A stretch of DNA of 64,000 nucleotides. Origin: Octopus vulgaris (Eukaryota). Of this stretch, positions 12,976 to 62,890 are shown piece by piece; position 1 is the first letter of the stretch; each line of letters opens with the position of its first letter. Location of the stretch: positions 37,138,001-37,202,000 of the forward strand of contig OX597834.1 of assembly GCA_951406725.2 (NCBI GenBank), written 5' to 3'. A program made the translations under genes and the position numbers. The notes below the pieces were generated by a model. It was not told the origin of the DNA. It saw only the letters and a program-made list of their open reading frames with translations, and searched no databases.

Positions 12976-13399
12976 CTCTCTCTCTTTCTCTCTCTTTCTT
13001 TCTCTCTCTCTCTTTCACATTCCCAGTCTGTGCCTCTATTTTCCTCTTCTTCTCTCTCTTTTTCACATATCTTGTCTGTGTCTCTATTTCTATATTCCTC
13101 TCTTCCTCTCCCTCTCTCTCTGTCTTTGTATCTCTATCTCACAATTCGTCATTCTCTTTCCCTCCCATAAACTAAGTGTCTTTCTCTCACACTGTCTGCA
13201 CTCTTTCTCTCCTCTCCAACTAACACTACCTTTGTCTCACTCATACCCCATCATTCTTTCCCTTTCATTCACACATCTCTGCAACACTGTCTGATTATTC
13301 CTCACCCTTTCTCTCTCAAAAATAAAATTCTAAAGCTTACGAAAAAAAAAAAAGAAAAAAAGAGACAGTGATAATTCTCCTACTTTTCCCACCGCCAAG

Positions 13400-14167
13400 A
13401 TGAACGACAGCGAGTTAAGCGATTTTGGAGGACTTGACTCTAACTCAACCGCCACACGTAATTTGGTAAGCCTAAATGAATGGCACAAGACTGTTATATC
13501 TCAATTGTCCCCAGAAGCCCAGACTTTTCTGATGGTTCTTTACAGTTTGACAACATTCACTTCAGTACTTGGTAATATATTATCAATAATAGTCTTCGCC
13601 AAAGGCAAGAAATGTAAAACGGACATCAAACCTTTTCTTCTCAATTTGGCCGTTTCTGATCTTATCATGGCATTATTCTGTATTCCATTCACCTTAATGG
13701 TGGTGCTTTTTCACATATGGTTTTTATCCCCGGCCATGTGCACCCTGGTTTTGTTCCTTCAGGTATTTTCTGTAACCATGAGTTCCTTCACGAATATGGC
13801 GATTGGTGTCGATCGACTTATCGCTGTTTTGTTCCCGCTTAAAATTCGCATAACGTCGTCTCGATCCAGCTGCATGATCGCCCTCATCTGGTTGTTCTCG
13901 GTGGCACTAGCTTCCGCAGAGTTATTTGTGGCCAGAGTTGCGGAAGCTTACCTCGAAGGAGACATCGTTCTGGTATGCGGCGAGATCTGGGAAAAAGCGT
14001 CACATGGTTCGATTTACTGGTGGATGAACATCGTTTTTGTTTGTTTCATTCCTTTTATTGTTTTAATGGTGACTTACTCAATACTTGCTAATGTCTTGTG
14101 GAAGAGGAGAGCACCAGGAAATGCAGACACGAGCAGAGACCAGCTGGCCTTAAGAGCCAAAAGAAAG
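13400..14167 (+). CDS. GPCR A exon 1 (TM1-TM5), rhodopsin-class neuropeptide receptor-like (tachykinin/RYamide/NPY-receptor-like)
   Basis: ORF with GN in TM1, NLAVSD in TM2, TM3 Cys and AIGVDRL (DRY-like), W in TM4, ECL2 Cys and FIPF..M..Y in TM5. It ends KRK followed by the donor GTGAGA at 14168 (phase 0). Confidence 0.93.
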
Positions 14168-15439
14168 GTGAGAATACCATTACTTCAATGTTATATATCT
14201 TATGTTTGTTAATATTATTTTGTCTGTTTTACGGCTGTCGCTCTGAAAATTGTACATGTTTTATGGCAATCGGTTAATTTACTATATTCATTTTGTTATT
14301 GGGATTAATATAAGTATTTTCTTAGAATCACCTTCCTTTCTTCTATAGGCACAAGGCCTCGAATTTGTGGGGAGGGGATAATCAACCCCAGTACTTAACT
14401 GGTACTTAATTTATTGACCCCGAAATGATGAAAGACAAAGTCAAACTAAGCGGAATTTGAACTCACAACGTAGCGGCAGACGAAATACCGCTAAGTATTT
14501 CGCCCGACTGCCAGCTCACCGCCTTCTTACAATCACTTCATCGACTGTACCTATCACGAATATGCGCAATCTTGAGTGGGAACCTGGTTCGAGAATTTCA
14601 GGGTCTTGGAGAGTGTGGTAGAATTTTTGAGTCACCATTGTTCCGAGGTCTACTGTGTCCCGGTGTAATATCACTCTTCAGGGTCCCATTTATGGTTTGA
14701 ATCGCATGTATCCACCCAAGACAGGGAATGCTGAAATAATGGGATGCAGCATGGTGAATGGGAACAATTTTGTCAGATGAACTTATTGAGTCAATGGTTA
14801 ATTAATGGTTAAATATTGACTGGGTGAACAGACATTAAACTGATAATGGCACGGATCATCTAGTCGAGTTAGAGAACTACTGTTATCATCAAGATAGCGT
14901 TCGAAGATGAGACATTTTAGTAAGAGAAACATCAATGTGACTAAAACCCAAACCAGACATCCATGGTGGAAGCACATGACCTAGTAGTTAGAGCAGCGGA
15001 CTCACGGTCGAGGGATCGTGGGTTCGAATCTCAGACCGGGCGATGTGTGTGTTTATGAGCGAAACACCTAAGCTCCACGCGGCTCCCGCAGAAGGCAATG
15101 GCAAACTTCTGCTGACTCTTTCGCCACAACTTTCTCTCACTCTTTCCTCCTGCATCTTGCAACTCCCCTGCGAGGGACCGGCGTCCCGTCCAGGTGGGAA
15201 ACCTATACGCCAAGGAAACCGGGAAACCGGCCCTTATGAGTCAGGCGTGGTTCGAGAAGGAACAAACAACATCAGACATCCATGTCTCGTCGCTCGATTC
15301 GGGTCGCTTGGCGTGGATGAGTTAAAAGTGATCCAGGCAAGTCATCCGACCAATTTGATTGCATCATACTTAAATGTGACTGATTGTTCGAGATAACACC
15401 ATCTATAAACGTATTGTGTTTAAAAGTGTAAAAGGCGAA

Positions 15440-16262: not shown

Positions 16263-16559
16263 AAAAGAATTTAAATAACATCTGCGTTCAACTCCATTTA
16301 TTTACTTATACATATATGTATATATGAGAACTTACTGTGGATAAGGCTGTGTAGTGTTCGATTATAAATAAATAAAAAATATACAATCAATAAGTTTAAA
16401 GCTCGAAATAGGGGTAATAAATAGTCGACAACTGAGGAGGAGTTAGACTTCTTTTCATGTTTTGTCCTGTACTTTTCTCTCGTTATATGTTTACGTATTT
16501 TTCGCTAGTGGTGTCCTGAGCTTAATGTGTATTTATATATACATTTCTTCTATTTTCAG

Positions 16560-16769
16560 GTTGTAAAAATGCTACTGACCATTGTAGTCATGTTCGGTGT
16601 ATGTTGGATGCCTTTCAGTATATTAATCTTGTTCCTCGAGTACCATTATGAACTAGCTTTGAAGCCCGGTTCCAAATTAATATCTATATATATTTCCCTA
16701 CACTGGTTAGCCATGGCCCACTCTTTTGTGAACCCTATCATCTATGGCTTCATGAATGATAATTTCAGA
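16560..16769 (+). CDS. GPCR A exon 2 (TM6-TM7)
   Basis: Acceptor ttttcag; 70 codons [30 protein letters not shown]; donor GTAAGC. Confidence 0.93.
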
Positions 16770-17246
16770 GTAAGCTAATCTTGTTCTTTTCTTGTTTTAT
16801 CCTCAGGTAAGCCGCCTGGTCCAGTAGATATAAGGCTAAAAAAATTCCTTCCGTAACCATCTATTCATATTAAGAAATTGTATTTTCATACAGTAGTTGT
16901 TTACCCCTACCACAGCCACAATTGAGGAGACATCATCAAAGGCTTTCTAAGAGTGACCATACATACATACATAGACACACACACATATGTATGTATGTTT
17001 GTATGTAAGTATGTAATTATGCATACATGTATATATGTATGTACACGTATGTATGCACGTATGTGTTTATGTATATATGCATGTATATATACAAGTAATA
17101 AGAGAGGGACCACATGTGGTCACTCTAACGCTAGAAATAGATCCGCAAAGGGAATCCACCACTAAAGAATTGTTCTCAAGCATTAATTCAACACGCCAAG
17201 AATGTAAGTGGGCAGGACAAATGAAAAATAACGAAAAAATGGATTA

Positions 17247-18506: not shown

Positions 18507-19287
18507 GAAAAAACGAAACTCGTCAATACGACATTTTAGCAAAAAAATGATGGATTCGTATAGCGATAGACAGAACGCTATTAATATTGTTTAAAAAAAC
18601 GTTATATGATATAACGTCATAAGTAGCTAACAGAAAGAGTAGGGATATTAATAGTGAATGTTAAATATAAAGGAAATTAAAGTTTAAACTATATATAATG
18701 ATAGAGACTACTTATATGCACTAAAAGTATGTTTCTGCCAATGCTTACATCTGTATGCTCGTTCTATAACCGTGTTTACTAGAGTATTTTTAGAAAAAAT
18801 AATGAAAAATAGCTCAGAATTGCAGAGAAGACAGAATTTCTTGCCTTTGTCATAAGGTATCGAAATTGAGAGGATCAACCATTCTAAATGAAATTGTTCA
18901 TTGTGGTCTTTTAAATCCCAAATCAGTTTGCTGAGACCGGTACTATTCCGTTTATTTCTATCCCTAAATGTTGAGTAATGGATAGAAATTCTTTTAGATA
19001 ACTCTAACGATGTGCTTCCAATGTAAAATCGTACTTTATTACGAGTACTGATTACACACTGGTATATAGAATTTTTAATCTTAGAGTTACTTGACATAAA
19101 TTTAATTCTATTGGAATTGACTTCAGATACAATAACCTTGTTATTAATATTTCTAGAGGGTTGGATGGTATTAGCTAAATTAATGTTAGTATTAGTAAAT
19201 GCAATAATATTTAATAGCGTTCTGTCTATCGCTATACGAATCCATCATTTTTTGCTAAAATGTCGTATTGACGAGTTTCGTTTTTTC

Positions 19288-31054: not shown

Positions 31055-31271
31055 TCTGACAGACAGACAGATAGATAGGTGGTTATACTTAGAATGTCTT
31101 TCATCTTATGTCTCCTCAATCAAAGCTGTCCTAGAGTTAAACAACAAAGGTGATAAATACACATTCTTAATACGAACAGACGGTCACTGATGGAACGGCT
31201 TTGATCGTACTTTTGCTGGACCAGACGGCTCACCTCGTTTTAAATGAACAAAAATAACAAGATGAACTTAC

Positions 31272-31481
31272 TCTGAAGTTTTCATTCATGAAGCCATAGA
31301 TGATGGGGTTCACACAGGTGTGGGCAAGAGCTAACCATTGCAGGAAAAGCCATGTAAGAGTTGAACGGACATAAGAAAAACTTAAGTATTCACCTTCGTG
31401 TATGAGGAACAGTTGAAATATAGTGAAAGGTATCCAACATAAACCGAAAAGGACAACAATTACAAACAGCATGCTTACAAC
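31272..31481 (-). CDS. GPCR B exon 2 (TM6-TM7)
   Basis: Acceptor ttttcag; 210 nt, the same length as in A; CWIPF and [13 protein letters not shown]; donor GTAAGT. Confidence 0.92.
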
Positions 31482-31494
31482 CTGAAAATAGAAG

Positions 31495-31542
<48 letters not shown>

Positions 31543-31706
31543 TGTGCGTGTACGTGTGTGTGTATGTGTGTGTCTGTGTGTGTGTGTGTGTATAGATAGA
31601 TAGATAGGTATATATATGTATATATATATATTTATATATATATACATATGTATATATATATATATGTACATATGTGTATATATATATGTATATACATTTG
31701 TATATA

Positions 31707-31737
<31 letters not shown>

Positions 31738-34700
31738 ATTAGAGACAAAACCACTATTTTGCAAAACAAACAAGGAAAGACTTAATCGTATAGTTTGTTT
31801 ATCTGTATGAGTGTGGGTGTGTAAATATTGTTGTATATATCGAGTTTAGTGAGTATGTATATGCGTATATGTGAGGGAGTATATGTATATGTTGTGTGTG
31901 TGTGTTTTGCGTATGTGTGTTTGTGTGTGAATGTGTATATGGGTTTGTTATATAGGTTTGGGGATGTATGTGTTAATTTGTCTGTGTGGGGAGGGAGTGG
32001 GTTTTTGGTGTATATTGAGGTTTATACGTTAGTATAGGTATGTGTGAGTGAGGTGGGTATTTGTATAAGTCGTGGGTCTGTGGTTTACGTGTGTGTATTT
32101 GTGTGTGAATGTTTAGGTTAGGGGGATTGCTATATAGGTTTGTTATAGAGTTTAGCAAAGGGAGATTTTATCATTATATGTTTTCGTGAGTTTTGGTTTA
32201 TCATGGTAGTTTTGTTAAAGAATTCGTAGTAATTTGTCTATTTGCGATGTTTGTTGTTTTGTTGCATTGTTTCATTCATAATTTTTGAGTGGTGTTCGTC
32301 TTACCACGTGAATATTATTTTTAATTCCATTTTTCCATTTCTCCATTCATAATTTTAAAAGATGTTCGTTTCCAGAGCGGGAATACTTTTTATACATATG
32401 TTAGGTTCCTTGGTAACGTATTTTTGTTTGGTGTATATGTTGAGGCTTATATGTACTTGTGGGTGTGTGTGAGTGGGGTGGGTGTTTGTATTTGTTATGG
32501 GTGTGTGGTTTACGTGTGTGTATTTGTGTGTGAATGTATAGGTTAAAGGGATTGCTATATAAGTCTGTTATAGGGTTTAGTAAAGGGAGGTTTTATCATT
32601 TATGTTTTTATGTACAAACGTGCATAGTAAAGGGAGCCCCATCACTACACTCAATGCATACTCTCACCTATCCGCACGGATGTGGAAGCGAATCACCGGT
32701 GTATATATTGAGGCTCATACGTAGCACTATGGAAGCGAACGTCATTGAAATTATGAATGGAATAAATGGAATTGGGAATTGTAACCGGGTGGTGGGCTAG
32801 CGTTGCTTAGGATTGGGAGTGGAATAGTGTAGTGAAATGGCAGACGTCGGGAATAGACGTGGATTGCTGCGAGTTATTTATTGAAACTGCCAGGATAAGC
32901 TAGAGCTCATAAATACATATAATAATTTATCATGGTAGTTTTATTAAAGAATCCATTCATAATTTTTTTGAGTAGTGTTGGTTTGCCGCGTGAATATAGT
33001 TTTTAGTTCCATTTATTCTATTTCTCCATTCATAATTTTAAGTGACGTTTGCTTCCATGGCGCGTATTCTTTTTATACATAAGTTATGTTCCTATGGTAA
33101 CGTAATTTGGTTTGGTTTTTTTAACGGCTTAGAATTTAATTTCACTTCATAATTTGAAACTGACTTGTAAGTATGTATATTATTTCTCCTTATGTCATAT
33201 TGTTATTTTTGATATTATGGTTAATTACGATGTATTTTATATATCGTTTTATGTGTAATAATGTTGTTTTTCTTTGGAGTGTTTATGTATGTGAGATTGT
33301 GTGTGAGTGTGTGCGTATTTTGGTTGTATAGTTTGTTTATCTGTATGAGTGTGGGTGTGTAAATATTGTTGTATATATCGAGTTTAGTGAGTATGTATAT
33401 GCGTATATGTGAGGGAGTATATGTATATGTTGTGTGTGTGTGTTTTGCGTATGTGTGTTTGTGTGTGAATGTGTATATGGGTTTGTTATATAGGTTTGGG
33501 GATGTATGTGTTAATTTGTCTGTGTGGGGAGGGAGTGGGTTTTTGGTGTATATTGAGGTTTATACGTTAGTATAGGTATGTGTGAGTGAGGTGGGTATTT
33601 GTATAAGTCGTGGGTCTGTGGTTTACGTGTGTGTATTTGTGTGTGAATGTTTAGGTTAGGGGGATTGCTATATAGGTTTGTTATAGAGTTTAGCAAAGGG
33701 AGATTTTATCATTATATGTTTTTATGAGTTTTGGTTTATCATGGTAGTTTTGTTAAAGAATTCGTAGTAATTTGTCTATTTGCGGTGTTTGTTGTTTTAT
33801 TGCATTATTTCATTCATAATTTTTGAGTGGTGTTCGTTTTACCACGTGAATATTATTTTTAATTCCATTTTTCCATTTCTCCATTCATAATTTTAAAAGA
33901 TGTTCGTTTCCAGAGCGGGAATACTTTTTATACATATGTTAGGTTCCTTGGTAACGTAATTTTGTTTGGTGGATATGTTGAGGCTTATATGTACTTGTGG
34001 GTGTGTGTGAGTGGGTGTTTGTATTTGTTATGGGTGTGTGGTTTACGTGTGTGTATTTGTGTGTGAATGTATAGGTTAAAGGGATTGCTATATAAGTATG
34101 TTATAGGGTTTAGTAAAGGGGGAGGTTTTATCATTTATGTTTTTATGAGTTTTAATTATTCTGGTTACTTACGATGTATTTTATATATCGTATTATGTGT
34201 AATAATGTTGTTTTTCTTTGGAGTGTTTATGTATGTGGGATTGTGTGTGAGTGTGTGCGTATTTTGGTTGTATAATTTGTTTGTCTGTGTGAGTGTGGGT
34301 GTGTTAATATTGTTGTATATATCGAGTTTAGTGAGTATGTATATGTATATGGTGTGTGTTTTACGTATGTATATTTGTGTGTGAATGTGTTTATGGGTTT
34401 GCTATATAGGTTTGGGGATGTATGTGTTTATTTGTCTGTGTGGGGTTGAGTGGGTTTTTGGAGTATATATTGAGGTTTATATGTATGTATAGGTATGTGT
34501 GAGTGAGGTGGGTATTTGTATATGTCGTGGGTGTGTGGTTTACGTGTGTGTATTTGTGTGTGAATGTTTAGGTTAGGGGGATTGCTATATAGGTATGTTA
34601 TAGAGTTTAGTAAAGGGAGATTTTATCATTATATGTTTTTATGAGTTTTGGTTTGTCATGGTAGTTTTGTTAAGGAATTCGTAGTAATTTGTGTCTATTT

Positions 34701-35027
34701 ACGATGTCTGTTGTTTTATTGTATTGTTTCATTCATAATTTTTAAGTAATGTTCGTTTTACCAAGTGAATATAATTTTTAATTCCATTTGTTCCATTTCT
34801 CCATTCATAATTTTAAATGATGTCCGTTTCCAGAGCGGGAATGTGGGTTGTATGTGTGTGTGAGGGAGTATGAATAAGTATTGTGTTGAAGTATTTGGCT
34901 ATTTTATTTATTTATCGTTGCCTAGACGTTTTTATGTGTATGTATAGGGATATATATATAGGTGTGTGATTTAGTGTATGTATTTAGAGATGGTTATATA
35001 TAATTAGTTATATGTGTATGGGTGTAT

Positions 35028-35357
35028 GATTGATTGATTGATTCTAGTTTCAGCTTATGAGCTGTGGCCATGCTGGGGCACTTCCATTTGGTGTTGCTAC
35101 TTGGTTTCACTTCATGGAGGCTTTCTAGCAACTGCTATTTGGTGCATGAGAGAGTTTGATGCAGCTGCCCTCATCTGCCCCTCCTGCCGTGAAGTTGGTT
35201 CATCTGGGACACCTGACAGGAAGAGATCCAGCTTCATTTTAAAGACATCTGTATCCACCCCATGCAGGTCTCTCAGGTTCTTCGGGAGGATATTGAAGAG
35301 CTGTGGGCCTCGGAAGCCCAGGCTATCACAGAATCTTGTCCTACATCTTGATGGCAG
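35028..35357 (-). mobile_element. 5'-truncated CR1-like LINE 3' end, inserted in the left pLTR only
   Basis: Minus frame reads ..GFRGPQLFNILPKNLRDLHGVDTDVFKMKLDLFLSGVPDEP..; (TCAA)n tail; gtat duplicated on both sides; absent from the right pLTR at ~43467. Confidence 0.75.
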
Positions 35358-35581
35358 GTATATATAGTTTATTTTTTGTTTTGTTTTGTTTTATATTTTA
35401 TATTTTATATTTTATATTTAATTGTTGATAGGTTTATTTTAGTTTATATATTGTTTATATATTGATTATATATGGATTATATATAGGTTATATATAGATT
35501 ATATATTTATATTTTTTCATTAATACTTTAATTATTTTAAAATTTTTATATTTTAAAATATTGATATTTTAGATTGGAAGT

Positions 35582-35624
35582 CCACCTGAAGATTGTCGAT
35601 CAGGACAAGAAACAATTGTAGTGG
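35582..35624 (+). ncRNA. Minimal type I hammerhead ribozyme (5' pLTR)
   Basis: ccac-CTGAAGA-ttgtc(gatcag)gacaa-GAAA-caattg-TA-gtgg: intact core, palindromic stem III, GUA cleavage triplet. Confidence 0.9.
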
Positions 35625-35859
35625 CAGTTTTTTTGACTTTTTATTAAAATTTTATGTATTGATTAAGTCTTTCCTTGTTTGTTTTGCAAAATAGTGGTTT
35701 TGTCTCTAATAATATTATATAATATTTTACTATAAAAATGGATTTAATCCTAAATCTGATTTTTTCCCTGTAAATTTGGATTTATTCCCTAATATTTATT
35801 ATTTTTATTTAATATTGATAATTTTGTATATTGAGTGTAATACCTCAATTTTGTAAATT

Positions 35860-38397
35860 ATGGATTTTACAGGTAAGATAGAACCGCCGTTTTGGGATTC
35901 ATCTTTGAAAGATATTCCTATTCCTTCTAGAAAGGAATTTATCTTGAAACTTGTTAATAATGTTAAAGATTTTATTTCTAGAATTAAATGGAAAGCTTTT
36001 TACTATAATTTTTATTTATTTAATGATATTGATAGTAGGAATGATAATTTTACCTCTAAATTTAAATCTAGAAAGGAACCTCCATTTAATAAAGAATTAC
36101 AATTACTTGAAGATAGTATATGGAAGGTGGTAAAAAATATTGAATTCCATAAATACGCAAATAGAAATAATGAATATTTAAGGAACTTAGCAATTAAAAT
36201 TAAAGATATGAGAAATATGGATGGTATTATAGTACAATCTGATAAAACAAGGAACCTATATAAATTAGATGTTAAATTATATGATAAACTATTAGGGAAA
36301 GAAATAATTAAAAAATATAAAATTGTTCCAGATGATATTCTTTATAATATTAATAAGGCCTCTAAATTAGTAATGTTAAAATATGAGTTGGATAATAAAA
36401 CTGAACCTTATGTACCTTTGCACCCCAGAATTACTCTTAAAGACCATAAAGATAATTTTTATTGAGACCCTAAAGTTAGATTAATTTGCCCATGTAAATC
36501 GGACCTAGGTAAATTAAGTAAATTTATTTTAGATAAATATATCGATAAGTTAAATAAACTTAATTATTTAAAATTATGGTTTAGTAATAACAATACATTG
36601 AAATGGTTTAATAATATTAAAGATAAAAATCGTTATAAATTTATTCAAATAGATATAGATAATTATTATTCTTCTATTAATGAAATTGTGTTTAATAAAG
36701 CGCTTATTTTCGCAATGAATAAAGTGGGTATGTCACGGGAAGAAGTTAATGTAATTAAAATGGCTAGGAAATCGCTAATTAAATATAAAAATAAATTATG
36801 GGCTAGGAATGATACTAGAGATTGTTTTGATATACCTATGGGAGCACCAGATTCTGCACAGGCTACTGATTTAGTAGGTATTTTTCTTTTATCTGAACTC
36901 CAATTAGAAAATCTTAAGATAGAGGGTGGCTTATATAGAGACGATCTTCTACTAGTTACAAAGAATTGTACTAATAGGAATCTAGAAGTATATAAGAAAA
37001 AACTATATAGTTTCTTTAAAAGATATGGTTTAAGTGTTACTATATATAAGGAGAATTATAATGTTAATTATTTAGATGTTAATTTTAATCTTATTACTGG
37101 TAAAACACAACCATATCATAAACTTAATGAGAACCTTAGATATATAAATGTTAATAGTAATCACCCATTTTCTATTAAAAAATCGTTGATTAATAATATA
37201 AGTAAACGTATTTCATTACTCTCTTATGATATAGAGATTTTTAATAAACATGCTAATTATTATAATGAGGCCCTTAGAGGGGCAGGTTATAATAGGAATA
37301 TTAAATTTTATAATATTAGTGATAAAGATTTAAATGATAATTTTCGAGATACTTCTAATAATAATTATAATTTTGTTAGGTTTGGTGGTAAAAATAGTAG
37401 ATATTATAAAAATAATAAAAATGATAAAAATATAAATAATAATAATAATAATAATAATAAAAATAATAATAATAATAATAAAAATAATAATAATAATAAT
37501 ACAAATAAGAATAATAAAAATAAAAATAAATTTAATAATTATTATAATAATTATATTGATAAAATTAATAATATTAATAATTCCTTAAATGCTGTACATA
37601 GATATAATTCTGATAATAATTTTAATAAAATAAATAATTATAAATATATTTATAATAATGATAATAATAATAAGGATAATAAGAATAAAATTTGGTTAAT
37701 AGTTCCTTATGGAGATCAAGTAAAAACGAATATTATTAAAGAGATTTTAGATGTTATTGAACTATTTATTAGAGATAATCGTAAATATAGAAACATTTTC
37801 TCTATTAATAATTTTGGAGTAGGTTATTCTACCACTAATAATGTAGGTAACATTATTTCTTCATTTAATAAATATAAACTGAATAATTTTTATAAAAAGA
37901 AATTATTAGGTAATAATATTAATAATGATAAGACTTATATTAATTGTACATGTAGAGTTAAATCTAATTGTATATTAAATAATAAATGTGATATTAACGA
38001 TGTAGTGTATAAATGTATAGTTACATTACATGATAATAACTTTAAGAATAATAATTACCCAAAAGCGGTTTATATAGGTTCTACTTCCTCAAAAATAAAA
38101 TTAAGAATCGCACAACATATGAATTCTTTTAAAAATAAAAACTTAATCAACTCAACCGGACTTAGTAAGTACATTTGGAGTCTTAAATCACTAAATATTA
38201 ATTATAGTTTAATTTGGGAAATAATTTGTAAAACTAAATCATATACTATAGGAGCTAATTGTTGTTATTTATGCTCTAATGAGTTAAAAGAAATTTTATT
38301 TTATAAGTATGATAATTTACTTAATACTGGTGAAGAGCGCAAAATAAAATGCAGACATAAGTTACTTTACCTATATAATAAGTTTCATGATAAATAG
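35860..38397 (+). pseudogene. PLE polyprotein: reverse transcriptase + GIY-YIG endonuclease, 845 codons with one in-frame TGA at 36463-36465
   Basis: ORFs 35860-36465 and 36598-38397 are in the same frame. RT motifs ITLKDHK, MGAPDSA and GLYRDD. Cys knuckle CTCR..C..C, then VVYKC..YIGST, CYLC..E and LN..E..CRH, typical of the Naiad/Chlamys clade. Confidence 0.9.
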
Positions 38398-41300
38398 CTT
38401 TAATAGTTCCCTATTAGGTTACTTTAGTTTAGTTTAATTTAGTTTAGATAATTATATTTATTTGGTTATGCAGTCTAGGCTTTAATTATAGTTAGTCTTT
38501 ATTGATATTTCTTTGTTTTAATTAGTTCATTTTTAATGTATATTAATATAACAGTTTATGGTACGTTAAAACTTTAATAATTTATATTAGATTTTTTTAT
38601 TTTCTTTAATTATATATTTTTTTTATTTTTATTTTATTTTATTATGTATTTTTATTATGTATTTGTTATATGTATATTGGAGGATATATTTATATGGATG
38701 ATGGGTGTTATTTAGTGGTGTATATATTGAGTTTTGTATGTATGTGTGAATGTTTACGATCCCTTTGTTTTTTATTTGGTATGTTGAATTGACAGATTTT
38801 ATTTGGGTATTGTCTGTTATAATAAAGTACACACACCCATAACAAATACAAGTGCCCACCTCATTCGCGCGTACCTGGAATAACGTATGAGCCTCAACAT
38901 ATACACCAAGGGACCACTCCCGCCCCACACGGACAGATAAACACATACATCCCCAAAAATGGGCGCAATCCCACTCACACCAATAATACATGTATACAAT
39001 TACACACACAAGAACAATACATAACTAACCCAAATATACAGAACATACCACAAATCACCAACAAACCACCATCACAAATGAAACCCACACCCATACAATG
39101 ACAAAACTCCCCCCTCCATACCCAATTACACCCACATAGCAATCCCCATATATTCATCCATACACAGGCGCGCATGCGCAGAACACACACACACAACACA
39201 TACGTACAACCCCCCAAACACACTCATATACATACGTATCAGACTCGACATCCACAACAATACGCTCACATCCACTCACACCCAGATAAACAAACTACAC
39301 AACCAAAAAACGCACACACACACGTGTGCGTATTTTAATTGTGCAATTCACCCATCCGCATGAATGCGGGCGCGAACACACCGTTGCACATATCGAGCCC
39401 AACAAGCATGCACATATACATGTGAGGGGTACACGCACATGCCGTGCGTGTATACCCCCCGCACTTATACCCGTGCGCGAATATACATATGGAGACTACA
39501 ACACAGGCACAAACGTGCATAGCAAAGGGAGCCCCATCACTACACTCAATGCATACTCTTACCCATCCGCACGGATGTGGAAGCGAATCACCGGTGCATA
39601 TGTTGAGGCTCATGCGTGGCACTATGGAGGCGAACGTCATTGAAATTGTGAATGGAATAGGTGGAATTGGGAATTGTAACCGGGTGGTGGGCTAGCGTTG
39701 CTTGAGATTGGGAGTGGAATAGTGTAGTGAAATGGCAGACGTCGGGAATAGACGTGGATTGCTGCGAGTTATTTATTGAAACTGCCAGGATAAGCTAGAG
39801 CTCATAAATACATATAATAATTTATCATGGTAGTTTTATTAAAGAATCCATTCATAATTTTTTTGAGTAGTGTTGGTTTGCCGCGTGAATATAGTTTTTA
39901 GTTCCATTTATTCTATTTCTCCATTCATAATTTTAAGTGACGTTTGCTTCCATGGCGCGTATTCTTTTTATACATAAGTTATGTTCCTATGGTAACGTAA
40001 TTTGGTTTGGTTTTTTTAACGGCTTAGAATTTAATTTCACTTCATAATTTGAAACTGACTTGTAAGTATGTATATTATTTCTCCTTATGTCATATTGTTA
40101 TTTTTGATATTATGGTTAATTACGATGTATTTTATATATCGTTTTATGTGTAATAATGTTGTTTTTCTTTGGAGTGTTTATGTATGTGAGATTGTGTGTG
40201 AGTGTGTGCGTATTTTGGTTGTATAGTTTGTTTATCTGTATAGTTTGTTTATCTGTATGAGTGTGGGTGTGTAAATATTGTTGTATATATCGAGTTTAGT
40301 GAGTATGTATATGCGTATATGTGAGGGAGTATATGTATATGTTGTGTGTGTGTGTTTTGCGTATGTGTGTTTGTGTGTGAATGTGTATATGGGTTTGTTA
40401 TATAGGTTTGGGGATGTATGTGTTAATTTGTCTGTGTGGGGAGGGAGTGGGTTTTTGGTGTATATTGAGGTTTATACGTTAGTATAGGTATGTGTGAGTG
40501 AGGTGGGTATTTGTATAAGTCGTGGGTCTGTGGTTTACGTGTGTGTATTTGTGTGTGAATGTTTAGGTTAGGGGGATTGCTATATAGGTTTGTTATAGAG
40601 TTTAGCAAAGGGAGATTTTATCATTATATGTTTTTGTGAGTTTTGGTTTATCATGGTAGTTTTGTTAAAGAATTCGTAGTAGCTTGTCTATTTGCGATGT
40701 TTGTTGTTTTGTTGCATTGTTTCATTCATAATTTTTGAGTGGTGTTCGTCTTACCACGTGAATATTATTTTTAATTCCATTTTTCCATTTCTCCATTCAT
40801 AATTTTAAAAGATGTTCGTTTCCAGAGCGGGAATACTTTTTATACATATGTTAGGTTCCTTGGTAACGTATTTTTGTTTGGTGTATATGTTGAGGCTTAT
40901 ATGTACTTGTGGGTGTGTGTGAGTGGGGTGGGTGTTTGTATTTGTTATGGGTGTGTGGTTTACGTGTGTGTATTTGTGTGTGAATGTATAGGTTAAAGGG
41001 ATTGCTATATAAGTATGTTATAGGGTTTAGTAAAGGGAGGTTTTATCATTTATGTTTTTAGGTACAAACGTGCATAGTAAAGGGAGCCCCATCACTACAC
41101 TCAATGCATACTCTCACCCATCCGCACGGATGTGGAAGCGAATCACCGGTGTATATATTGAGGCTCATACGTAGCACTATGGAAGCGAACGTCATTGAAA
41201 TTATGAATGGAATAAATGGAATTGGGAATTGTAACCGAGTGGTGGGCTAGCGTTGCTTAGGATTGGGAGTGGAATAATGTAGTAAAGTGGCAGACATCGG

Positions 41301-43691
41301 GAATAGACGTGGATTGCTACGAATTGTTTGTTGAAACTGCCAAGATGAGCTAAAGCTCATAAATACATATAATAATTTATCATGGTAGTTTTATTAAAGA
41401 ATCCATTCATAATTTTTTTGAGTAGTGTTGGTTTGCCGCGTGAATATAGTTTTTAGTTCCATTTATTCTATTTCTCCATTCATAATTTTAAATGACGTTT
41501 GCTTCCATGGCGCGTATTCTTTTTATACATAAGTTATGTTCCTATGGTAACGTAATTTTGGTTTGGTTTTTTTAACGGCTTAGAATTTAATTTCACTTCA
41601 TAATTTGAAACTGACTTGTATGTATATTATTTCTCCTTATGTCTTATTGTTATTTTTGATATTCTGGTTAATTACGATGTATTTTATATATCGTTTTATG
41701 TGTAATAATGTTGTTTTTCTTTGGAGTGTTTATGTATGTGAGATTGTGTGTGAGTGTGTGCGTATTTTGGTTGTATAGTTTGTTTATCTGTATGAGTGTG
41801 GGTGTGTAAATATTGTTGTATATATCGAGTTTAGTGAGTATGTATATGCGTATATGTGAGGGAGTATATGTATATGTTGTGTGTGTGTGTTTTGCGTATG
41901 TGTGTTTGTGTGTGAATGTGTATATGGGTTTGTTATATAGGTTTGGGGATGTATGTGTTAATTTGTCTGTGTGGGGAGGGAGTAGGTGTTTGGTGTATAT
42001 TGAGGTTTATACGTTAGTATAGGTATGTGTGAGTGAGGTGGGTATTTGTATAAGTCGTGGGTCTGTGGTTTACGTGTGTGTATTTGTGTGTGAATGTTTA
42101 GGTTAGGGGGATTGCTATATAGGTTTGTTATAGAGTTTAGCAAAGGGAGATTTTATCATTATATGTTTTTATGAGTTTTGGTTTATCATGGTAGTTTTGT
42201 TAAAGAATTCGTAGTAATTTGTCTATTTGCGGTGTTTGTTGTTTTATTGCATTATTTCATTCATAATTTTTGAGTGGTGTTCGTTTTACCACGTGAATAT
42301 TATTTTTAATTCCATTTTTCCATTTCTCCATTCATAATTTTAAAAGATGTTCGTTTCCAGAGCGGGAATACTTTTTATACATATGTTAGGTTCCTTGGTA
42401 ACGTAATTTTGTTTGGTGGATATGTTGAGGCTTATATGTACTTGTGGGTGTGTGTGAGTGGGTGTTTGTATTTGTAATGGGTGTGTGGTTTACGTGTGTG
42501 TATTTGTGTGTGAATGTATAGGTTAAAGGGATTGCTATATAAGTATGTTATAGGGTTTAGTAAAGGGAGGTTTTATCATTTATGTTTTTATGAGTTTTAA
42601 TTATTCTGGTTACTTACGATGTATTTTATATATCGTATTATGTGTAATAATGTTGTTTTTCTTTGGAGTGTTTATGTATGTGGGATTGTGTGTGAGTGTG
42701 TGCGTATTTTGGTTGTATAATTTGTTTGTCTGTGTGAGTGTGGGTGTGTTAATATTGTTGTATATATCGAGTTTAGTGAGTATGTATATGTATATGGTGT
42801 GTGTTTTACGTATGTATATTTGTGTGTGAATGTGTTTATGGGTTTGCTATATAGGTTTGGGGATGTATGTGTTTATTTGTCTGTGTGGGGTTGAGTGGGT
42901 TTTTGGAGTATATATTGAGGTTTATATGTATGTATAGGTATGTGTGAGTGAGGTGGATATTTGTATATGTCGTGGGTGTGTGGTTTACGTGTGTGTATTT
43001 GTGTGTGAATGTTTAGGTTAGGGGGATTGCTATATAGGTATGTTATAGAGTTTAGTAAAGGGAGATTTTATCATTATATGTTTTTATGAGTTTTGGTTTG
43101 TCATGGTAGTTTTGTTAAGGAATTCGTAGTAATTTGTGTCTATTTACGATGTCTGTTGTTTTATTGTATTGTTTCATTCATAATTTTTAAGTAATGTTCG
43201 TTTTACCAAGTGAATATAATTTTTAATTCCATTTGTTCCATTTCTCCATTCATAATTTTAAATGATGTCCGTTTCCAGAGCGGGAATGTGGGTTGTATGT
43301 GTGTGTGAGGGAGTATGAATAAGTATTGTGTTGAAATATTTGGCTATTTTATTTATTTATCGTTGCCTAGACGTTTTATGTGTATGTATAGGGATATATA
43401 TATAGGTGTGTGATTTAGTGTATGTATTTAGAGATGGTTATATATAATTAGTTATATGTGTATGGGTGTATATATAGTTTATTTTTTGTTTTGTTTTGTT
43501 TTATATTTTATATTTTATATTTTATATTTAATTGTTGATAGGTTTATTTTAGTTTATATATTGTTTATATATTGATTATATATGGATTATATATAGGTTA
43601 TATATAGATTATATATTTATATTTTTTCATTAATACTTTAATTATTTAAAAATTTTTATATTTTAAAATATTGATATTTTAGATTGGAAGT

Positions 43692-43734
43692 CCACCTGAA
43701 GATTGTCGATCAGGACAAGAAACAATTGTAGTGG
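43692..43734 (+). ncRNA. Minimal type I hammerhead ribozyme (3' pLTR)
   Basis: Identical to 35582-35624. Confidence 0.9.
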
Positions 43735-43906
43735 CGGTTTTTTTGACTTTTTATTAAAATTTTATGTATTGATTAAGTCTTTCCTTGTTTGTGTTGCAAA
43801 ATAGTGGTTTTGTCTCTAATAATATTATATAATATTTTACTATAAAATTGGATTTAATCCTAAATCTGCTTTTTTCCCTGTAAATTTGGATTTATTCCCT
43901 AATATT

Positions 43907-43981
<75 letters not shown>

Positions 43982-45538: not shown

Positions 45539-45782
45539 TGAATACTGCTTCAGTTGCGTGCATAGGGTTATGTCAATTACAGTTGTTGTCATAAAATAGA
45601 TGCAATTAATAGAACTATTGTAAGAAAACACTTATATTAATCCTATTAACATATAATATAGATATAGTAATCTAACCGATTGCCCTAAAAATATGGACAG
45701 ACTTCAGAGTGACTCTCGTAAAACAGATAGGACAATATTAACAAACACAAGTTATATAATATTAAAATGATAATAATCTCAC

Positions 45783-46448
45783 CTTCATTTTGACTCTTGT
45801 GGCCAGCTGGTCCCTATTCCGGTTCTCATTTTCTGGTGTTATCCTCTTCCACAAGAAGTTAGCAAGTATTGTGTAAGTTACAGTTAGCATAGTAAAAGGC
45901 AGGAAGCAAGTACAAATGCTCATCACCCACTGATAAATCAAATATGACCATTCTCCCCAGGTACCTATGCATGTCACATAGTTTTCTCCACCATAGTTAA
46001 TTTTTTCAATTCTGATGAAAAAAAGGGGTACGGAAGATATTGTTGCCGAGAGCAACCAGATCAGGGCGATTGTAGGCGTAGATCTAGACGTCGATATCCG
46101 ATATTTTAGTGGGAACAATATAGCGAAAAGTCGATCAACACCAATCGCCACATTCGTAGAGGAACTCATGGTTATAGAAAATGACTGAAGAAAATCAACC
46201 AGAGTGCAATAGACCGGGGAAATAAACGATTCGGGAATATAGATAATTATTAAGGTGAATGGGAGACAGAATATTCCCATGATTAGATCAGCAACTGCCA
46301 AATTGAGAAGGTAAGGTTTAAAGTCCGTTTTACATTTCTTACCTTTGGCGAAGACTATTATTGATAATATATTACCAGAAATTGAAGCAAATGTTGATAA
46401 ACTGCAAAGAACTGTTAGAAAATTTAGCGCTAGAGTAGACGAAAACAT
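45783..46448 (-). CDS. GPCR B exon 1 (TM1-TM5), paralog of GPCR A
   Basis: GNILSIIVFAKGKKCKTD is shared with A; also NLAVAD and AIGVDRL. Same phase-0 donor GTGAGA after KMK. First in-frame ATG at 46448 (the ORF track starts at a TTG). Confidence 0.88.
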
Positions 46449-47074
46449 TTCAGCAGATATATGGGTAGAAATCGAATCACCTCGGTTTTCTAAAGATTTT
46501 GCTGTAGGCAAGTTATTTGCGGTGGGAAAAGTAGGAGAATTTTTACTGTTTCTGATTTTAAACTTTCGAATTTGAAAATTAGAGAGAGGATGTGTGAGGA
46601 TAATCAGGCAGAATATAATTAAGATGTGTGAGTGAGAGGGAAAGAAAGAGAGATCGAGTATGAGTGAGACAAAGGCAGTGTTAGTTGCAGTAAGAGGGAA
46701 GAGAGAGATATGCAGAGTATGAGTGAGTGAAAGACACTCAGTTTAAGGGAGTGAAAGACAGAGACAGTGAGAGAGGACGATGGAAATAGAAACACAGAGA
46801 GGGAATGTGAAAAAGAGAGAGGGAACGAGAGGGCGAGAGATCGTGAGTTATGGAAATTAAGAGAAAAAAGGTGGTAGACAGAGTGAGAAAGAAAGTGAGA
46901 GAAAGAGAGAGAAGAAAAAGAGTATGTGTGAAAGGGAAAGATTTGGAAGAGAAAGAGAAACAGTGTACGTGAGAGAGAGAGAAAGAGAGAGAGAGATTGG
47001 GAGAGAAAGAGAGAAAGAGACGGGGAAAATAGACAGACAGACAGTCAGAAAGACCACGTGCAAGTTAGAGTGAA

Positions 47075-49449: not shown

Positions 49450-52400
49450 GCTGTAAAGACGTTTTCCGATTCAAAATTTTAGTTCATTCCAAAACCTCGC
49501 TAATATAAGTATCTATTTATATTTTACATCTTTAAATCGTCAATTTTAATATCTATAAGTCTTTGGTGTAATAATATTTTTCTTATGTAAATATTGTTGT
49601 TTATGTAATGATCTAATTATCGTAATTTTCTATATAATTATTAGATATTAAATTTAAGTTTATTCGTAACATATTACTTAGCGATAGATGTGTTGTTTGA
49701 TAGCAAGATTACGAGTTGTCTAAAGTTAGATTTATGTACATACATGTATTAATAGTATTAATTGTAGTTTTAAATTTCTTATAATTAAAATTAGATAAAC
49801 TTAGATATGCTTCGACCAAAGATTGGTCCAGGCTATGTCTAACTTAATAGCTTAACTTAGTTATTGTCTTTTTAAATTGATATTTGCCATTGATAAATAT
49901 ATTTATAGTATTTTTAGTATTTATTCGATACTATATAACTACGAATTGATTATTTGCATAAGTATTTTAAATAAGATCTCCGAAAGTTCGTTTAAGTTTG
50001 TTTGGTTGTATTTTTGAATTTAGATATTTCATCTTTAAATATGAAATATTAATTTATTAGCTCTTTATTATATGTGCATATATATTTATTTATAGAGATT
50101 ATTTTAGATCTCAATTATAATAATTATATACATATATATATATCCATTGATAATTTTTTATATATAATAGTCATTTTTAAAAAATATTTATGTAATTAGG
50201 TATAGACTTTTACTGACATTAGATTTTCGGTGGGTTTCTTACCTTAAAATTTAAATTAATATTTAACATTATAATCGATTTTGATATAATCATAATTATT
50301 ATGTTTTAAGTTTCTAGTTTGATAATAGAGTTTATTATAAGTAAAATTATTATATTATTTATATCTTTAAAATATTGTTTAAATATTTCTGATTATTTTA
50401 AAAATATTTCAACTAACCTGAAGATTGGCTGTAACCATAGCTCAAATTATTTATTGAATATAAATTATTGTTATTCGAATTGGTACAGCCATGAAACGAT
50501 CGTAGTGTTTTACTCTTTATCTTTTATGAAACTTTTAATACTTTTGATATTTATATATAAAATTTTTTTAAATAAAATAAATGAATAAATAAATAAATAA
50601 AAATAAATGAATTAATTAATTTATAAACAAAATAATATATAAATATAAAAATATACATATATATATATTTGTATATATATATTTAAATTTATGAGTTTAA
50701 ATTATTGTAATAATTTTTAAATTTTTAACTTTTATATTTTAAAATTAATTTTACGTATTGGCTTATGTTTTTCACTGTTTGATTTGCCTAATAATGGTTT
50801 TATCTTTAATTTAATATAATATAATATAATATATTTATACTATAAAATTGGATTTAATCCTGAATCTAATTTTTCCCTGTAAGTTTGGATTTTTTCCCTA
50901 ATATTATTATTATTAATTAATATATTGATAAATTACGTAAATTGAATGTTATTACAGGTAAGATAGAACCGCTATTTTGGAATTCATCTTTGAAGGATAT
51001 TCCAATACCTTCTAGGAAAGAATATATTTTGAAACTTATTAATAATATTAAGGATTTTGTTTCTGGAATTAAATGTAAAGCCTACTATTATAACTATAAT
51101 ATATCTAATTTTAATGATTGTATGAATGATAATTTTACTTCTAATGTTAAATCAAAAATTGAACCCCCATTTAATAGAGAATTACAAATACTAGGAGATA
51201 ATATTTGGAAGGCGGTGAAAAACATTAAATTTCATTAATACACGAACAGAAATAATGAATATTTAAGAAATTTAGCAATTAGAATTAAAGAAATGAGAAA
51301 TATGGATGGTATTATTGTACAATCAGATAAAACTAAGAATCTCTATAAATTGGATGTTAAATTATATGATAACCTTTAAGAGAAAGAAATAATAAAAAAA
51401 ATATAAAATTGTTCCAGATAGTATACTTTATAATATTAATAACTCCTCTAAATTAGTAATGATAAACTATGAGTTGGATAATAAAACTGAACCTTATGTA
51501 CCTATGCACCCTAGAATTACTCTGAAAGACAATAAAGATAATTTTTATTCTGACCCTAAAGTTAGATTAATTTGTCCATGTAAATTTGACCTTGTTAAAT
51601 TGAGTAAACTTATTTTAGATAAATATTTAAGTAAATTAAATAAACTTAATTACTTAAAATTATGGTTTAGTAATAATAATACTTTAAATTGGTTTAATAA
51701 TATTAAAGATAAAAATCGATATAAATTTATTCTAATAGATATAGATAATTACTATTCTTCTATTAATGAAATTGTGTTTAATAAGGCCCTTATTTTTGCA
51801 ATGAATAAAATGGGAATGACTTTTGAAGAGGTTAATGTAATTAAAATGGCTAGGAAATCGTTTATAAAGTACAAAAATAAATTATGGGCTTGGAAAGATA
51901 CTAGGGACTTTTTTGATATACCTATGGGAGCACCTGATTCTGCACAAGCTACGGATTTTGAAGGTATTTATCTTTTATCTGAACTCCAGTTAGTAAATTT
52001 AAAAATAGAGGGTGGTTTATATAGGGATGACCTTCTACTTATTACTAAGAACTGCACTAATAGGAACATAGAAGTATATAAGAAAACACTTTATAGTTTC
52101 TTTAAAAGATATGTTTTAAGTATTACTATACATGATGAGAATTTTAATGTTAATTATTTAGATGTTAATTTTAATCTAATTACGGGTAAAACACAACCAT
52201 ATCATAAACTTAATGAGAACCTAGATATATAATTATTAATAGTAATCACCCACCATCAATTAAAAAATCGTTGATTAATAATATAAGTAAACGTATATCA
52301 TTACTTTCTTATGATTTAGAGATTTTTAATAAACATGCACATTATTACAACGAGGCCCTCAGAGAGGCAGGTTATTATAGTAATATTAAATGTTTTATAA

Positions 52401-53720
52401 AAATTAAGATAAAACTATTAATAATAGACATAAAAATATTAGTAATATTTATAATGATTTTATTAGTAATACTGGTAATCTTAGTAATTATAAAAATAAA
52501 AATAATATAAATAAAAATATGAATAAAAATAAAAATAATAACTTTAATAATTCTTTAAATGTTAATTATAATTATAAATTTAAATCTAATAATGATAATA
52601 ATAATATGATAAAGAAATATAATAATAATAATGGTAACAATAATAATGATAGTTTTAATAATAATAAGATGCAAAATAAGAATAAAATTTGGTTAATATT
52701 TCCTTATGGTGCTCAAGTTAAAACGAACATTATAAAAGAGATTTTAGGTATTATTTAACTATTTATTCGAGATAATCTTAAATATAAAAACATTTTCCCT
52801 GGTAATAATTTTGGAGTGGGTTATTCCACCACTAATAGTGTAGGTAACATTATTTCTTCTTTTAACAAATTTAAACTGAATAATATTTATAAAAAAGATA
52901 AGACACTTATTAATTGTACATGTCGAGATAAAACTAAATGGAAGTTAAATAATAAATGTGATATTAACGATGTAGTGTTTAAATGTATAGTAACATTACA
53001 TAATGAGAATAGTCAGAATAATTACAATTCAAACGTGATATATATAGGGTCCACTTCCTCTAAAACAAAATTAAGAATCGCACAGTATATGCATTCATTT
53101 AAAAATAAAAACTTAATTAACTCCACTGGACTTAGTAAGTACATTTGGAGACATACATCCCAAAATGTTTATTATGTTTTATCATGGGAAATAATTAGTA
53201 AGGCTAAATCATATAGTATATGAGGGAATTTTTGTTATTTATGTTCAAATGAGTTTAATGAAATTTTATTTTATAGGCATGATAATTTAGTGAATCACTG
53301 GGATGAGCGCAAAATAAAATGCAGACACAAGTTACTTTACTTGTATAATAAATTTCTTGATAAATAACGAATATTTCTTATCCTTAATTAGCTCCTTATT
53401 TGTTGATTTATGTAATAGTATTCTAGATTAGTAAGATAAAATATTTAGATTAAACTTAATGTTTACCTCTATTTTTGTATTAAAGTATGAATATAGAAAT
53501 TTATATACGTATTTATTTATATGATATATGAGTTTGTGTGTGTATGTATATATATGTATAGGTTGATGTTCGTGTATATATATGTATATATATATACATT
53601 TATTTGTGGGTGTGTGTGGGTGGGTGTGTGTGGGTGGGTGTGTGTATATAAGTGTATGTGTATTTATTGAGCATTGTATGTATGTACATGTATGTATGTG
53701 TATGTGTGTATTTGAGTGCA

Positions 53721-58700: not shown

Positions 58701-59780
58701 CTGGTTTCAATTGCTGTTCTGTATTGTTTGTGAATAGAGAAGTTGTGTTCGACCAGAGAGAATCTTAGCATCATCATTTTTTTTTTCCATGTGCGTTTGT
58801 GTTATTGCAATAAAAAGTGTTTGTATATTTCCTGTAAGGTAATATTGTGGAGGTTGAAGTTGACTTTTCTAGAGATGTTTGTATGTCCAGTTAGAAGAAC
58901 AGGTGTGTTTTTACAATAAAAAGTATATGTTTACATTTATATTTGAATATTCAGGGAGGAAGCAAAGAAAAGTCAGATTTTCATAGAAAGTTTTAGGGTT
59001 TTGTAAGTCCACAAAAAGAAAAGCGTGATGTTTTTAGAGAGAAGAAAAAAAAGGGGGGGATGTTTACAGAGGCAATTGTGGGTATCAAAGTTTTTAAAGC
59101 TGGTCGAATGTATGATTGAAAACTGTAGATATGTAAATTTGTAAATTTTCTTAACTTATTTTGAAGGGCTGTTCTGTATTATTTCTGAATAGAGAAGCTG
59201 TGTTCGACCAGAGAGAATCTTAGCATCATTATTTTTTCCATGTGCGTTTGTGTTATTGCAATAAAAAGTGTTTGTATATTTCGTGCAAGGTAATATTGTG
59301 GAGGTTGAAGTTGACCCCTCTAGAGATGTTTGTATGTCCAGTTAGAAGAACAGGTGTGTTTTTGCAATAAAGTGTATATGTTTACATTTATATTTGAATA
59401 TTCTGGGAGGAAGCAAAGAAAAGTCAGATTTTCATAGAAAGTTTTAGGGTTTGCAAGTCCACAAAAAGAAAAGCGTGATGTTTTTAGAGAGAAGAAAAAA
59501 AAAAGGTGCTTACAGAGGCAGTTGTAGGTATTAAAGTTTTTAAAGCCGATCGGATGTATGTTTGAAAGCTGCAGATATGTAAATTTGTAAATTTCTTAAC
59601 CCACTTTGAAGAAAATTTCAAATACTCACGAGGTATTGTAGATGTTCCAGTCTTTGAGAGTTATTTTTCCCCGTTGCTAAACTGGCCCATATTAGTGTTT
59701 CTATGGCTTTCAGCCACCGAACTGTCAGAGCAGTGAGGAACACGTCCAGCCGCTGTCAAGGCTGGCGCTCTTCTTCCATA
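55726..59780 (-). mobile_element. R4/Dong-like non-LTR retrotransposon (RT + CCHC + restriction-like endonuclease), frameshifted
   Basis: Three overlapping ORFs at 58274-58777, 56715-58334 and 55906-56778. Motifs NYRPITCL, DYKKAFDS, FQGDSLSP, HMDDLK, CRFC..H..GC, RHD, KPDIV..ID. Flanked by (TAA)n. Assigning 58780-59780 to this element is tentative. Confidence 0.88.
58713..59610. repeat. Two tandem copies of a ~455 bp unit
   Basis: gctgttctgtatt..gaatagagaag..tgtgttcgaccagagagaatcttagcatc occurs at ~58713 and ~59168, and the copies stay colinear. Confidence 0.85.
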
Positions 59781-60623: not shown

Positions 60624-60689
<66 letters not shown>

Positions 60690-60696
<7 letters not shown>

Positions 60697-61442: not shown

Positions 61443-61481
<39 letters not shown>

Positions 61482-61747
61482 CAGCAGTTATTCTTATTTA
61501 TCACTGACGTTCGAGTAAATAGCTGAACATTTTCATCATTTAAGGATTGTCGTTCAACCGGATGTGAAAATTTAAGTCAGATTGTATTACTATTAACTAC
61601 ATCATCATAACACATGTAATCAATTTATCATCTTAATTTTATTTAATTTCTATAAATTTTTTTATGTATTGGATTAATTCTTTCTTTGTTTGATTTGCAT
61701 AATAGTGGTTTTGTCTCTAATTAATATTATATATATATATACATACA

Positions 61748-61786
<39 letters not shown>

Positions 61787-62532: not shown

Positions 62533-62571
<39 letters not shown>

Positions 62572-62837: not shown

Positions 62838-62890
<53 letters not shown>

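Follow-up and report, generated by a model that had tools for sequence, protein, structure and literature searches.

Which process makes a long inverted repeat lose its palindrome at the DNA level while its RNA can still pair? The question is raised by a hairpin that occurs three times in a stretch of 64,000 nucleotides from Octopus vulgaris (contig OX597834.1; this whole stretch is called the window, and positions given without a copy name refer to it). A preliminary description of this DNA had reported that the mismatches of the hairpin are mostly G:U on the plus strand and that each arm has several possible partners, and had interpreted the pattern as pairing that is kept in RNA and lost in DNA, as in precursors of endogenous hairpin RNAs (hpRNAs) and siRNAs, which implies preservation by selection.

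Pairing alignments were scored with G:U and A:C treated alike. The arm and its near partner (32700-32837 with 32939-33081) form 90 Watson-Crick, 30 G:U and 3 A:C pairs, besides 8 other pairs and 19 gap columns; the near partner, the shorter of the two, is paired in two pieces. With the far partners at 32190-32379, 33725-33917 and 34645-34837, the arm at 32725-32909 makes 121-124 Watson-Crick pairs together with 45, 45 and 47 G:U and 2, 2 and 3 A:C pairs, respectively. The modules at 39619-39958 and 41150-41531 have G:U to A:C ratios of 31:2 and 29:3, and the third arm gives 43:3, 42:2 and 44:3 with 40640-40829, 42175-42364 and 43090-43282. Against an equal split these excesses have p values from 1e-6 to 2e-11; base composition of the arms alone predicts 76-78% G:U, and the observed share is higher (p 0.03 for the near partner, 0.0007-0.002 for the far ones). 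The two kinds of mismatch are strongly unequal and the wobble-rich plus-strand hairpin is confirmed; its recurrences, and the six longer partners listed in the preliminary description, all lie where they had been placed.

Folding of both strands of 32720-33070 gives a far more stable structure on the plus strand (-142.1 kcal/mol, z -11.4) than on the minus strand (-79.5 kcal/mol, z -6.4). The longest stacked helix has 22 bp and the longest pure Watson-Crick run 14 bp. In its context the arm is predicted to pair with the near partner, and the far partner is the stronger one when folded alone (-180 vs -124 kcal/mol). Rfam returned 36 weak matches over 31000-56000, all below the gathering score and none within the hairpins.

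The hairpins are located in the 5-kb non-coding 3' region and in the pseudo-LTR of a Penelope-like retroelement of Hydra type, whose parts are collected in Table 1. The ORF is flanked by a direct repeat, in which 31788-35027 plus 35358-35831 match 40238-43942, and both ends of the element adjoin (TA)n.

Table 1. Positions of the element, its hairpin arms and their partners in the window.
Feature	Position	Strand	Basis or remark
(TA)n tract before the 5' pseudo-LTR	31497-31736		
5' pseudo-LTR, upstream partial copy of the element 3' region	31788..35027	+	98.95% identical to 40238-43471
U-rich far partner, upstream	32190..32379	+	121 Watson-Crick, 45 G:U, 2 A:C with arm
G-rich arm, inverted copy of the U-rich segment	32725..32906	+	38/89 A to G
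Near partner across the inversion junction	32927..33060	+	9/39 A to G
U-rich far partner, tandem duplicate	33725..33917	+	9/54 A to G
U-rich far partner, tandem duplicate	34645..34837	+	pairing alignment
Inserted foreign repeat (330 bp) of the 5' pseudo-LTR, missing from the 3' one	35028..35357		gap between self-matches
End of 5' pseudo-LTR / leader of full unit	35358..35831	+	96.6% identical to 43468-43942
Minimal type I hammerhead motif	35582..35624	+	read from sequence and motif scan; stem I CCAC/GTGG, core CTGAAGA, stem II, GAAA, palindromic stem III, GUA site
ORF with RT and C-terminal GIY-YIG	35860..38397	+	in-frame TGA at 36463-36465
Captured inversion: C/A-rich arms, re-inverted edited arm, G-rich arm	38842..39821	+	reverse match to L045 5967-4852
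Older edited hairpin, now reversed	39139..39499	-	A:C on plus strand, G:U on minus strand
Two tandem 1.55-kb units multiplying arm and partners	39505..42590	+	39505-41060 vs 41060-42590, 95.7%
Hairpin module 2, arm and near partner	39619..39958	+	pairing alignment
U-rich far partner	40640..40829	+	pairing alignment
Hairpin module 3	41175..41510	+	pairing alignment
U-rich far partner	42175..42364	+	pairing alignment
U-rich far partner	43090..43282	+	pairing alignment
Second hammerhead motif	43692..43734	+	8110 nt after the first
Terminal (TA)n of element	43912-43977		

The assignment to the Hydra clade is made on motifs. In copy L023 the ORF has 840 amino acids and, aligned with six relatives, conserved YRDD and MG motifs and YIG..T near the C-terminus; KWK (RWK or RWR in relatives), DKT, the linker CTCRDKSNC, CYLC and CRH are also present, and a Pfam search with the element ORF gave no match. 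The Hydra clade is composed of EN+ Penelope-like elements and includes a listed family from Octopus bimaculoides (Craig et al. 2021, PMC8557442). As described there for the clade, a single ORF joins the RT to a C-terminal GIY-YIG domain (recognized here by motif only), with RWK and DKT, a CxCX5C linker, CxxC and CxH around conserved E and N, and no CCHH; partial tandems forming a pseudo-LTR, inverted copies at junctions, (TA)n targets and a hammerhead in the pseudo-LTR are likewise shared (PMC8557442). The length differs, being typically below 3 kb in the clade, with consensus lengths of 1.1-3.0 kb in that account, and 8.1 kb for the unit here (about 3.0 kb in the relative L052), with tails from 225 nt to 5.3 kb; also unlike the clade as described in PMC8557442, the tail is built by duplication and inversion and is heavily altered from A to G. 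The hammerhead motif, found in 35 of the 40 fetched copies with the same layout as Hydra hammerheads (PMC8557442, file S2), marks a putative ribozyme in the pseudo-LTR; it is absent from the Rfam matches, and its fold alone is not above shuffled sequences. The Naiad clade was rejected, as Naiads have an N-terminal endonuclease. Two protein relatives are named, one from Octopus bimaculoides and one from Argonauta. Because other copies carry a sense codon at the position of the in-frame TGA, the idea that it encodes selenocysteine was dropped. Between RT and endonuclease (37275-37700) lies an Asn-rich (AAT)n expansion, whose length differs among copies and across which the frame is still open in L023.

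A search for the hairpin over the 2.8-Gb genome gave 641 candidates, 40 of which were scored. In the RT search, 20 matches at 98-100% identity head the 143 listed, and copies with 99-100% RT identity and long open frames exist; the family is young.

Comparison of 40 copies, fetched and mapped, indicates how the arm arose. From stop codon to hammerhead the tail measures 225 nt in L052, 2.1-3.1 kb in L050, L051, L044 and L055, 3.5-4.1 kb in L022, L023, L040 and L045, and 5.3 kb in the window copy. L041, L051 and L044, which branch outside the group of the window copy, possess the U-rich segment and lack the inverted arm. In the window, 38842-39821 is a single reverse copy of L045 5967-4852, an inversion of about 980 nt; the G-rich arm is the junction end of the inversion and the near partner the forward sequence across the junction. 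A 1.55-kb tandem unit is common to the window copy and L057, and tandem duplication, including that of this unit, accounts for the many partners. The set of alternative partners goes back to duplication in tandem within the tail of a retroelement and is no designed switch; the earlier statement that each arm can pair upstream or downstream does not hold for the arm at 39621, which has no upstream partner within its own hammerhead-to-hammerhead unit (35586-43696).

The direction of change was established against the reverse complement of three hairpin-free relatives. In the arm, A-to-G changes affect 38/89, 34/84 and 31/76 sites with the three relatives in turn, and C-to-T changes 0/24, 0/26 and 2/19; in the partner, A-to-G changes number 9/54, 8/58 and 9/49. 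Because arm and partner both gained A-to-G changes, the G:U and the U:G wobbles both represent sense-strand A-to-G. A separate hairpin in L045 behaves in the same way, with 87/146 A-to-G and 6/78 C-to-T in its arm and 51/101 A-to-G in its partner. A count of 59/159 C-to-T in the L045 arm was discarded, because the ancestor behind it was the edited partner of that arm; the figure of 6/78 is against a hairpin-free copy.

Rates were obtained by parsimony on a 26-copy tree, from an alignment of the window copy with the 25 of the 40 copies that have a long colinear block. In the RT region 0-10 of 825 bases differ from the column majority, and in the structured tail several per cent do. A-to-G change affects 45 of 122 A sites in this hairpin, 30/200 in the C/A arms and 7/169 in the unpaired tail (p 3e-13), and synonymous A sites of the ORF record 3 events at 208 sites. 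The changes come in bursts: single branches carry 18, 13 and 12 of them in the arms, against 3-4 changes in the whole ORF. When the module is compared across 20 copies, A:U and G:U alternate at 46 of 128 pairs, G:C and G:U at 6, and one pair has changed on both sides; A:C occupies 2 cells of that matrix. Different lineages carry different subsets of the G changes.

The tail also holds an edited hairpin that was turned around. The neighbouring hairpin formed by 39139-39341 with 39300-39499 has the opposite bias on the plus strand (4 G:U, 68 A:C), because an edited hairpin of L045 type was re-inverted in the lineage of the window copy: 39012-39330 has 42 T-to-C changes, and 39331-39500 has minus-strand A-to-G at 42/78. 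It has since gained 11 A-to-G changes on its new sense strand.

Fresh inversions provide the negative control. In 12 junction inversions of up to 1477 nt, some spanning the same arms, there are 10791 Watson-Crick, 26 G:U and 27 A:C pairs; one of the 12, L060, is mis-aligned, and without it the counts are 11 G:U and 17 A:C in 10530 Watson-Crick. The junction inversions are unbiased and, therefore, a DNA palindrome alone gains no wobble pairs; these inversions presumably never passed through RNA as hairpins.

The nucleotide 5' of the changed A was counted without redundancy in two independent arms: change reaches 55/75 after U, 28/55 after C, 40/86 after A and 2/17 after G, so that an upstream G is depleted (2/17 vs 123/216, p 5e-4). 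Recent variants lack this depletion (9/36 after G vs 94/289, p 0.45) and are enriched after U (47/105, p 6e-4), and it is absent from the L045 partner (7/14). ADAR-type deaminase domains (PF02137) are encoded at four loci of the genome; PF02137 also covers tRNA deaminases, so that the four loci are not necessarily all ADAR. In four runs guessed to be RNA, contigs span 25-29 of 30 bins; they are uninformative on editing, strand and level, since in assembled contigs an edit looks the same as a difference between two of the hundreds of copies. In one contig, from run X3, 106 nt are missing across the module 2 loop (39728-39835), which could be a jump of reverse transcriptase across the hairpin or another subfamily.

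We consider it highly probable, reasoning from comparison of copies, that the arm is an inverted duplicate and that its G:U pairs derive from sense-strand A-to-G changes, likely ADAR A-to-I edits fixed repeatedly by the RT of the element. These elements leave inverted pieces at insertion junctions, and one inversion, of about 980 nt, joined the transposing unit; with this the cycle would start. The transcript is predicted to fold into long duplexes, in which ADAR would deaminate many adenosines of both arms; by known chemistry the RT would read inosine as G and daughter insertions would carry G, turning A:U into G:U and never into A:C. The lineage-specific subsets of G, and the edited hairpin that was inverted and then hit again on its new strand, argue that the cycle ran more than once. 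ADAR is the likely enzyme and the element RT the likely writer: A-to-G change is found on one strand, in both arms of the duplex, and is confined to double-stranded regions, as in a retrocopy of edited RNA. G:U is the end state of such a process because G and U cannot be deaminated further, and the G/U-saturated hairpins of L055 and L079 fit it. The pointer of the preliminary description to A-to-I clusters was in the right direction, and its claim that RNA pairing outlasted the DNA palindrome stands, with a cause at the RNA level; what finds no support is the implied selection of hpRNA type as that cause.

Some observations strain this explanation. Parsimony places 48 G-to-A events in the hairpin, nearly all at a G opposite U, and in the pooled arms G-to-A affects 35/67 sites opposite U vs 3/49 opposite C; we read this apparent reversal as parallel edits or recombination. 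In the sense hairpins, an A that faces C is hit no more often than one that faces U (2/8 vs 64/256). A weaker sense-strand bias of C-to-T runs across the tail and adds some G:U pairs (25/62 vs 36/295 for G-to-A, p 1e-6); it is no higher in the arms than outside (103/331 vs 17/45, p 0.40) and is a second bias, which ADAR does not explain. Transversions in this hairpin are not depleted relative to the unpaired tail (53/493 vs 90/699, p 0.28) and are slightly fewer in the C/A and G/T arms (100/1060 vs 90/699, p 0.03), where weak selection on the fold may act.

Selection could be the main cause if the element needed the RNA duplex, for example for packaging, circularisation or docking of the RT, so that G:U pairs survived as the palindrome eroded. 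The better folding of the plus strand over the whole tail (-997 vs -615 kcal/mol in L023), the near absence of A:C across the 128 pairs of 20 copies and the slight transversion deficit of the C/A and G/T arms all favour it. Purifying selection, however, cannot lift A-to-G above the neutral rate (45/122 against 3/208), and almost all G:U pairs arose from that change; a fold under selection is also hard to reconcile with the rarity of G:C/G:U variation (6 vs 46 pairs), the single two-sided change, the undepleted transversions of this hairpin, C-to-T changes showing no preference for sites that restore pairing (p 0.34), and the existence of hairpin-free relatives, one with a tail of 225 nt. We regard this reading as improbable. 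The more specific claim of the preliminary description, a hairpin precursor yielding siRNAs, has a model in the hpRNA and endo-siRNA loci of Drosophila, where long imperfect stems are rich in G:U; those are stand-alone host non-coding genes with phased siRNAs and targets, and their structure is kept by compensatory change. The long imperfect fold-back with its many G:U pairs and its 22-bp longest helix resembles them, and contigs from runs guessed to be RNA cover the module. It differs from them in being the tail of a transposon, internal to a multi-copy retroelement rather than a stand-alone host locus, and in lacking covariation (one pair in 128); it is young and hypervariable at the wobble sites, has no Watson-Crick run beyond 14 bp, and has no evident target or conserved small-RNA register. 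Incidental siRNA output is conceivable and would leave the origin of the G:U pairs unexplained, and we give this claim very little credence.

Two mutational explanations dispense with RNA editing. If the exposed sense strand were deaminated non-enzymatically, or by an enzyme other than ADAR, through an asymmetry of transcription or replication, A-to-G and C-to-T would rise together; the tail is indeed strongly skewed to G/T, and C-to-T exceeds G-to-A on the sense strand throughout it. Damage of this kind is expected to strike C more than A, and single-stranded stretches more than paired ones. The arm, with 38/89 A-to-G and 0/24 C-to-T, shows the reverse; A-to-G is confined to duplexes and C-to-T is not, and the host gene is transcribed from the opposite strand. 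As a cause of the A-to-G changes this process is contradicted and very doubtful, and it is the leading account for the C-to-T component only. Errors of fold-back DNA synthesis, in which G:T wobbles would place G opposite T in the new arm, are extremely unlikely: fresh inversions are near-perfect (1477/1477, 1121/1121 and 1317/1318), the template partner gained A-to-G as well, and T opposite G is not raised, which refutes them unless the error mode is rare and episodic.

Copies can also be compared within one insertion. The two pseudo-LTRs of the window copy have 17 A/G among their 26 differences; independent editing of two RNAs was rejected as the reason, since module 1 (32614-34145) is, by eye, a mosaic of modules 3 and 2, which suggests template switching between tandem units or conversion during pseudo-LTR formation. 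Where another insertion has an upstream piece that matches, its direct and inverted pieces have no A/G excess. Within single insertions of L021-L060 and L081-L091, direct pieces agree with inverted ones in their A/G state for as much as 7 kb, which fits either a single RNA molecule as template for both or a small number of edits in each round.

Avian retroviruses provide a precedent for ADAR-type A-to-G hypermutation (Hajjar and Linial 1995; Felder et al. 1994; as reviewed in PMC12925331). As in the cases reviewed there, about half of the A in an inverted repeat became G and the change was recorded in DNA after reverse transcription; those, as summarized in PMC12925331, are isolated viral clones, and here we have a large germ-line family with changes that accumulate across lineages and on both strands after re-inversion. 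APOBEC is likewise known to scar the copies of retroelements (PMC2873906), and Knisbacher and Levanon described this 'DNA editing' in LTR retrotransposons (PMC4866542). Here, too, the scars would be those of a host deaminase, fixed in retroelement copies and read by comparing copies; the APOBEC kind, as reported in PMC4866542, is sense-strand G-to-A from editing of cDNA and absent from 19 invertebrates, whereas the octopus element is of non-LTR type and its changes are A-to-G on the sense strand, within RNA duplexes only. Porath et al. (PMC5625713) report that Penelope transcripts of a lizard are hyper-edited, that octopus has a very high level of editing and that upstream G is depleted at ADAR sites across animals. 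Penelope RNA is thereby known as a heavy ADAR substrate, and the upstream-G depletion of that study is matched by the two independent arms here and not by the recent variants; editing is treated in the cited passages of PMC5625713 in RNA only, with no description of genomic fixation. According to a 2026 preprint, in the part cited here, retrozymes are linked to Penelope pseudo-LTRs.

In the open-access literature, by titles and abstract openings, nothing was found on ADAR edits fixed in Penelope copies. The chemistry is already known; this locus adds a family that is both autonomous and active, several rounds of change recorded on the two strands, estimates of rate and a negative control. If the explanation is right, transient A-to-I editing is written routinely and cumulatively into a germ-line genome by an active transposon, and dated copies make up a fossil record of ADAR in the germ line, of its activity as well as its specificity. 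Moreover, the edits can serve as molecular barcodes for the way in which Penelope-like elements build tandem and inverted ends, called uncharacterised in the account of PMC8557442. A caution also follows: a strong bias of G:U over A:C, often taken to prove a selected RNA structure, arises here without covariation. More speculatively, the system might work as an editing ratchet, a possibility we hold only tentatively: inversions would be captured, ADAR would turn the duplex toward G:U, the RT would fix the change, and the dulled hairpin would permit further transposition, the G/U-rich tail being the end state of many cycles and a host enzyme of dsRNA tolerance acting as both heritable mutator and shield.

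Distant Penelope-type ORFs (54-80% RT identity) are also accompanied by one-strand wobble-biased inverted repeats, at L062 6340-8639, L068 7416-9501 and L075 6802-7159. Their G:U lies on the strand opposite the ORF and their G follows U or C and almost never G; they are not counted as support.

The window holds two two-exon genes of rhodopsin-family receptors (7tm_1) placed tail to tail, one on the minus strand (45765-46742 plus 31233-31499) and one on the plus strand (13334-14209 plus 16509-16775). The intron of the minus-strand gene, 14 kb long, contains the element in antisense orientation, so that the re-inverted hairpin would be present in host pre-mRNA in its G:U form. The repeat at 35028-35357 is 96% identical to a piece of L062 upstream of another Penelope-type ORF; its minus-strand frame has no Pfam match and is presumably similar to the C-terminus of LINE ORF2. 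Of the words sampled from the stretch, 15-36% also occur under three other organism labels (runs X12 and X16-X19). Other repeats in the window comprise an older, broken copy of the same Penelope-like family (50722-53366, plus strand, 78-83% identical), a GIY-YIG-like fragment of another relative (18708-19244, minus strand), a frameshifted non-LTR retrotransposon with RVT_1 (55906-58801, minus strand) and an array of tandem repeats of about 1.1 kb (60633-63388).
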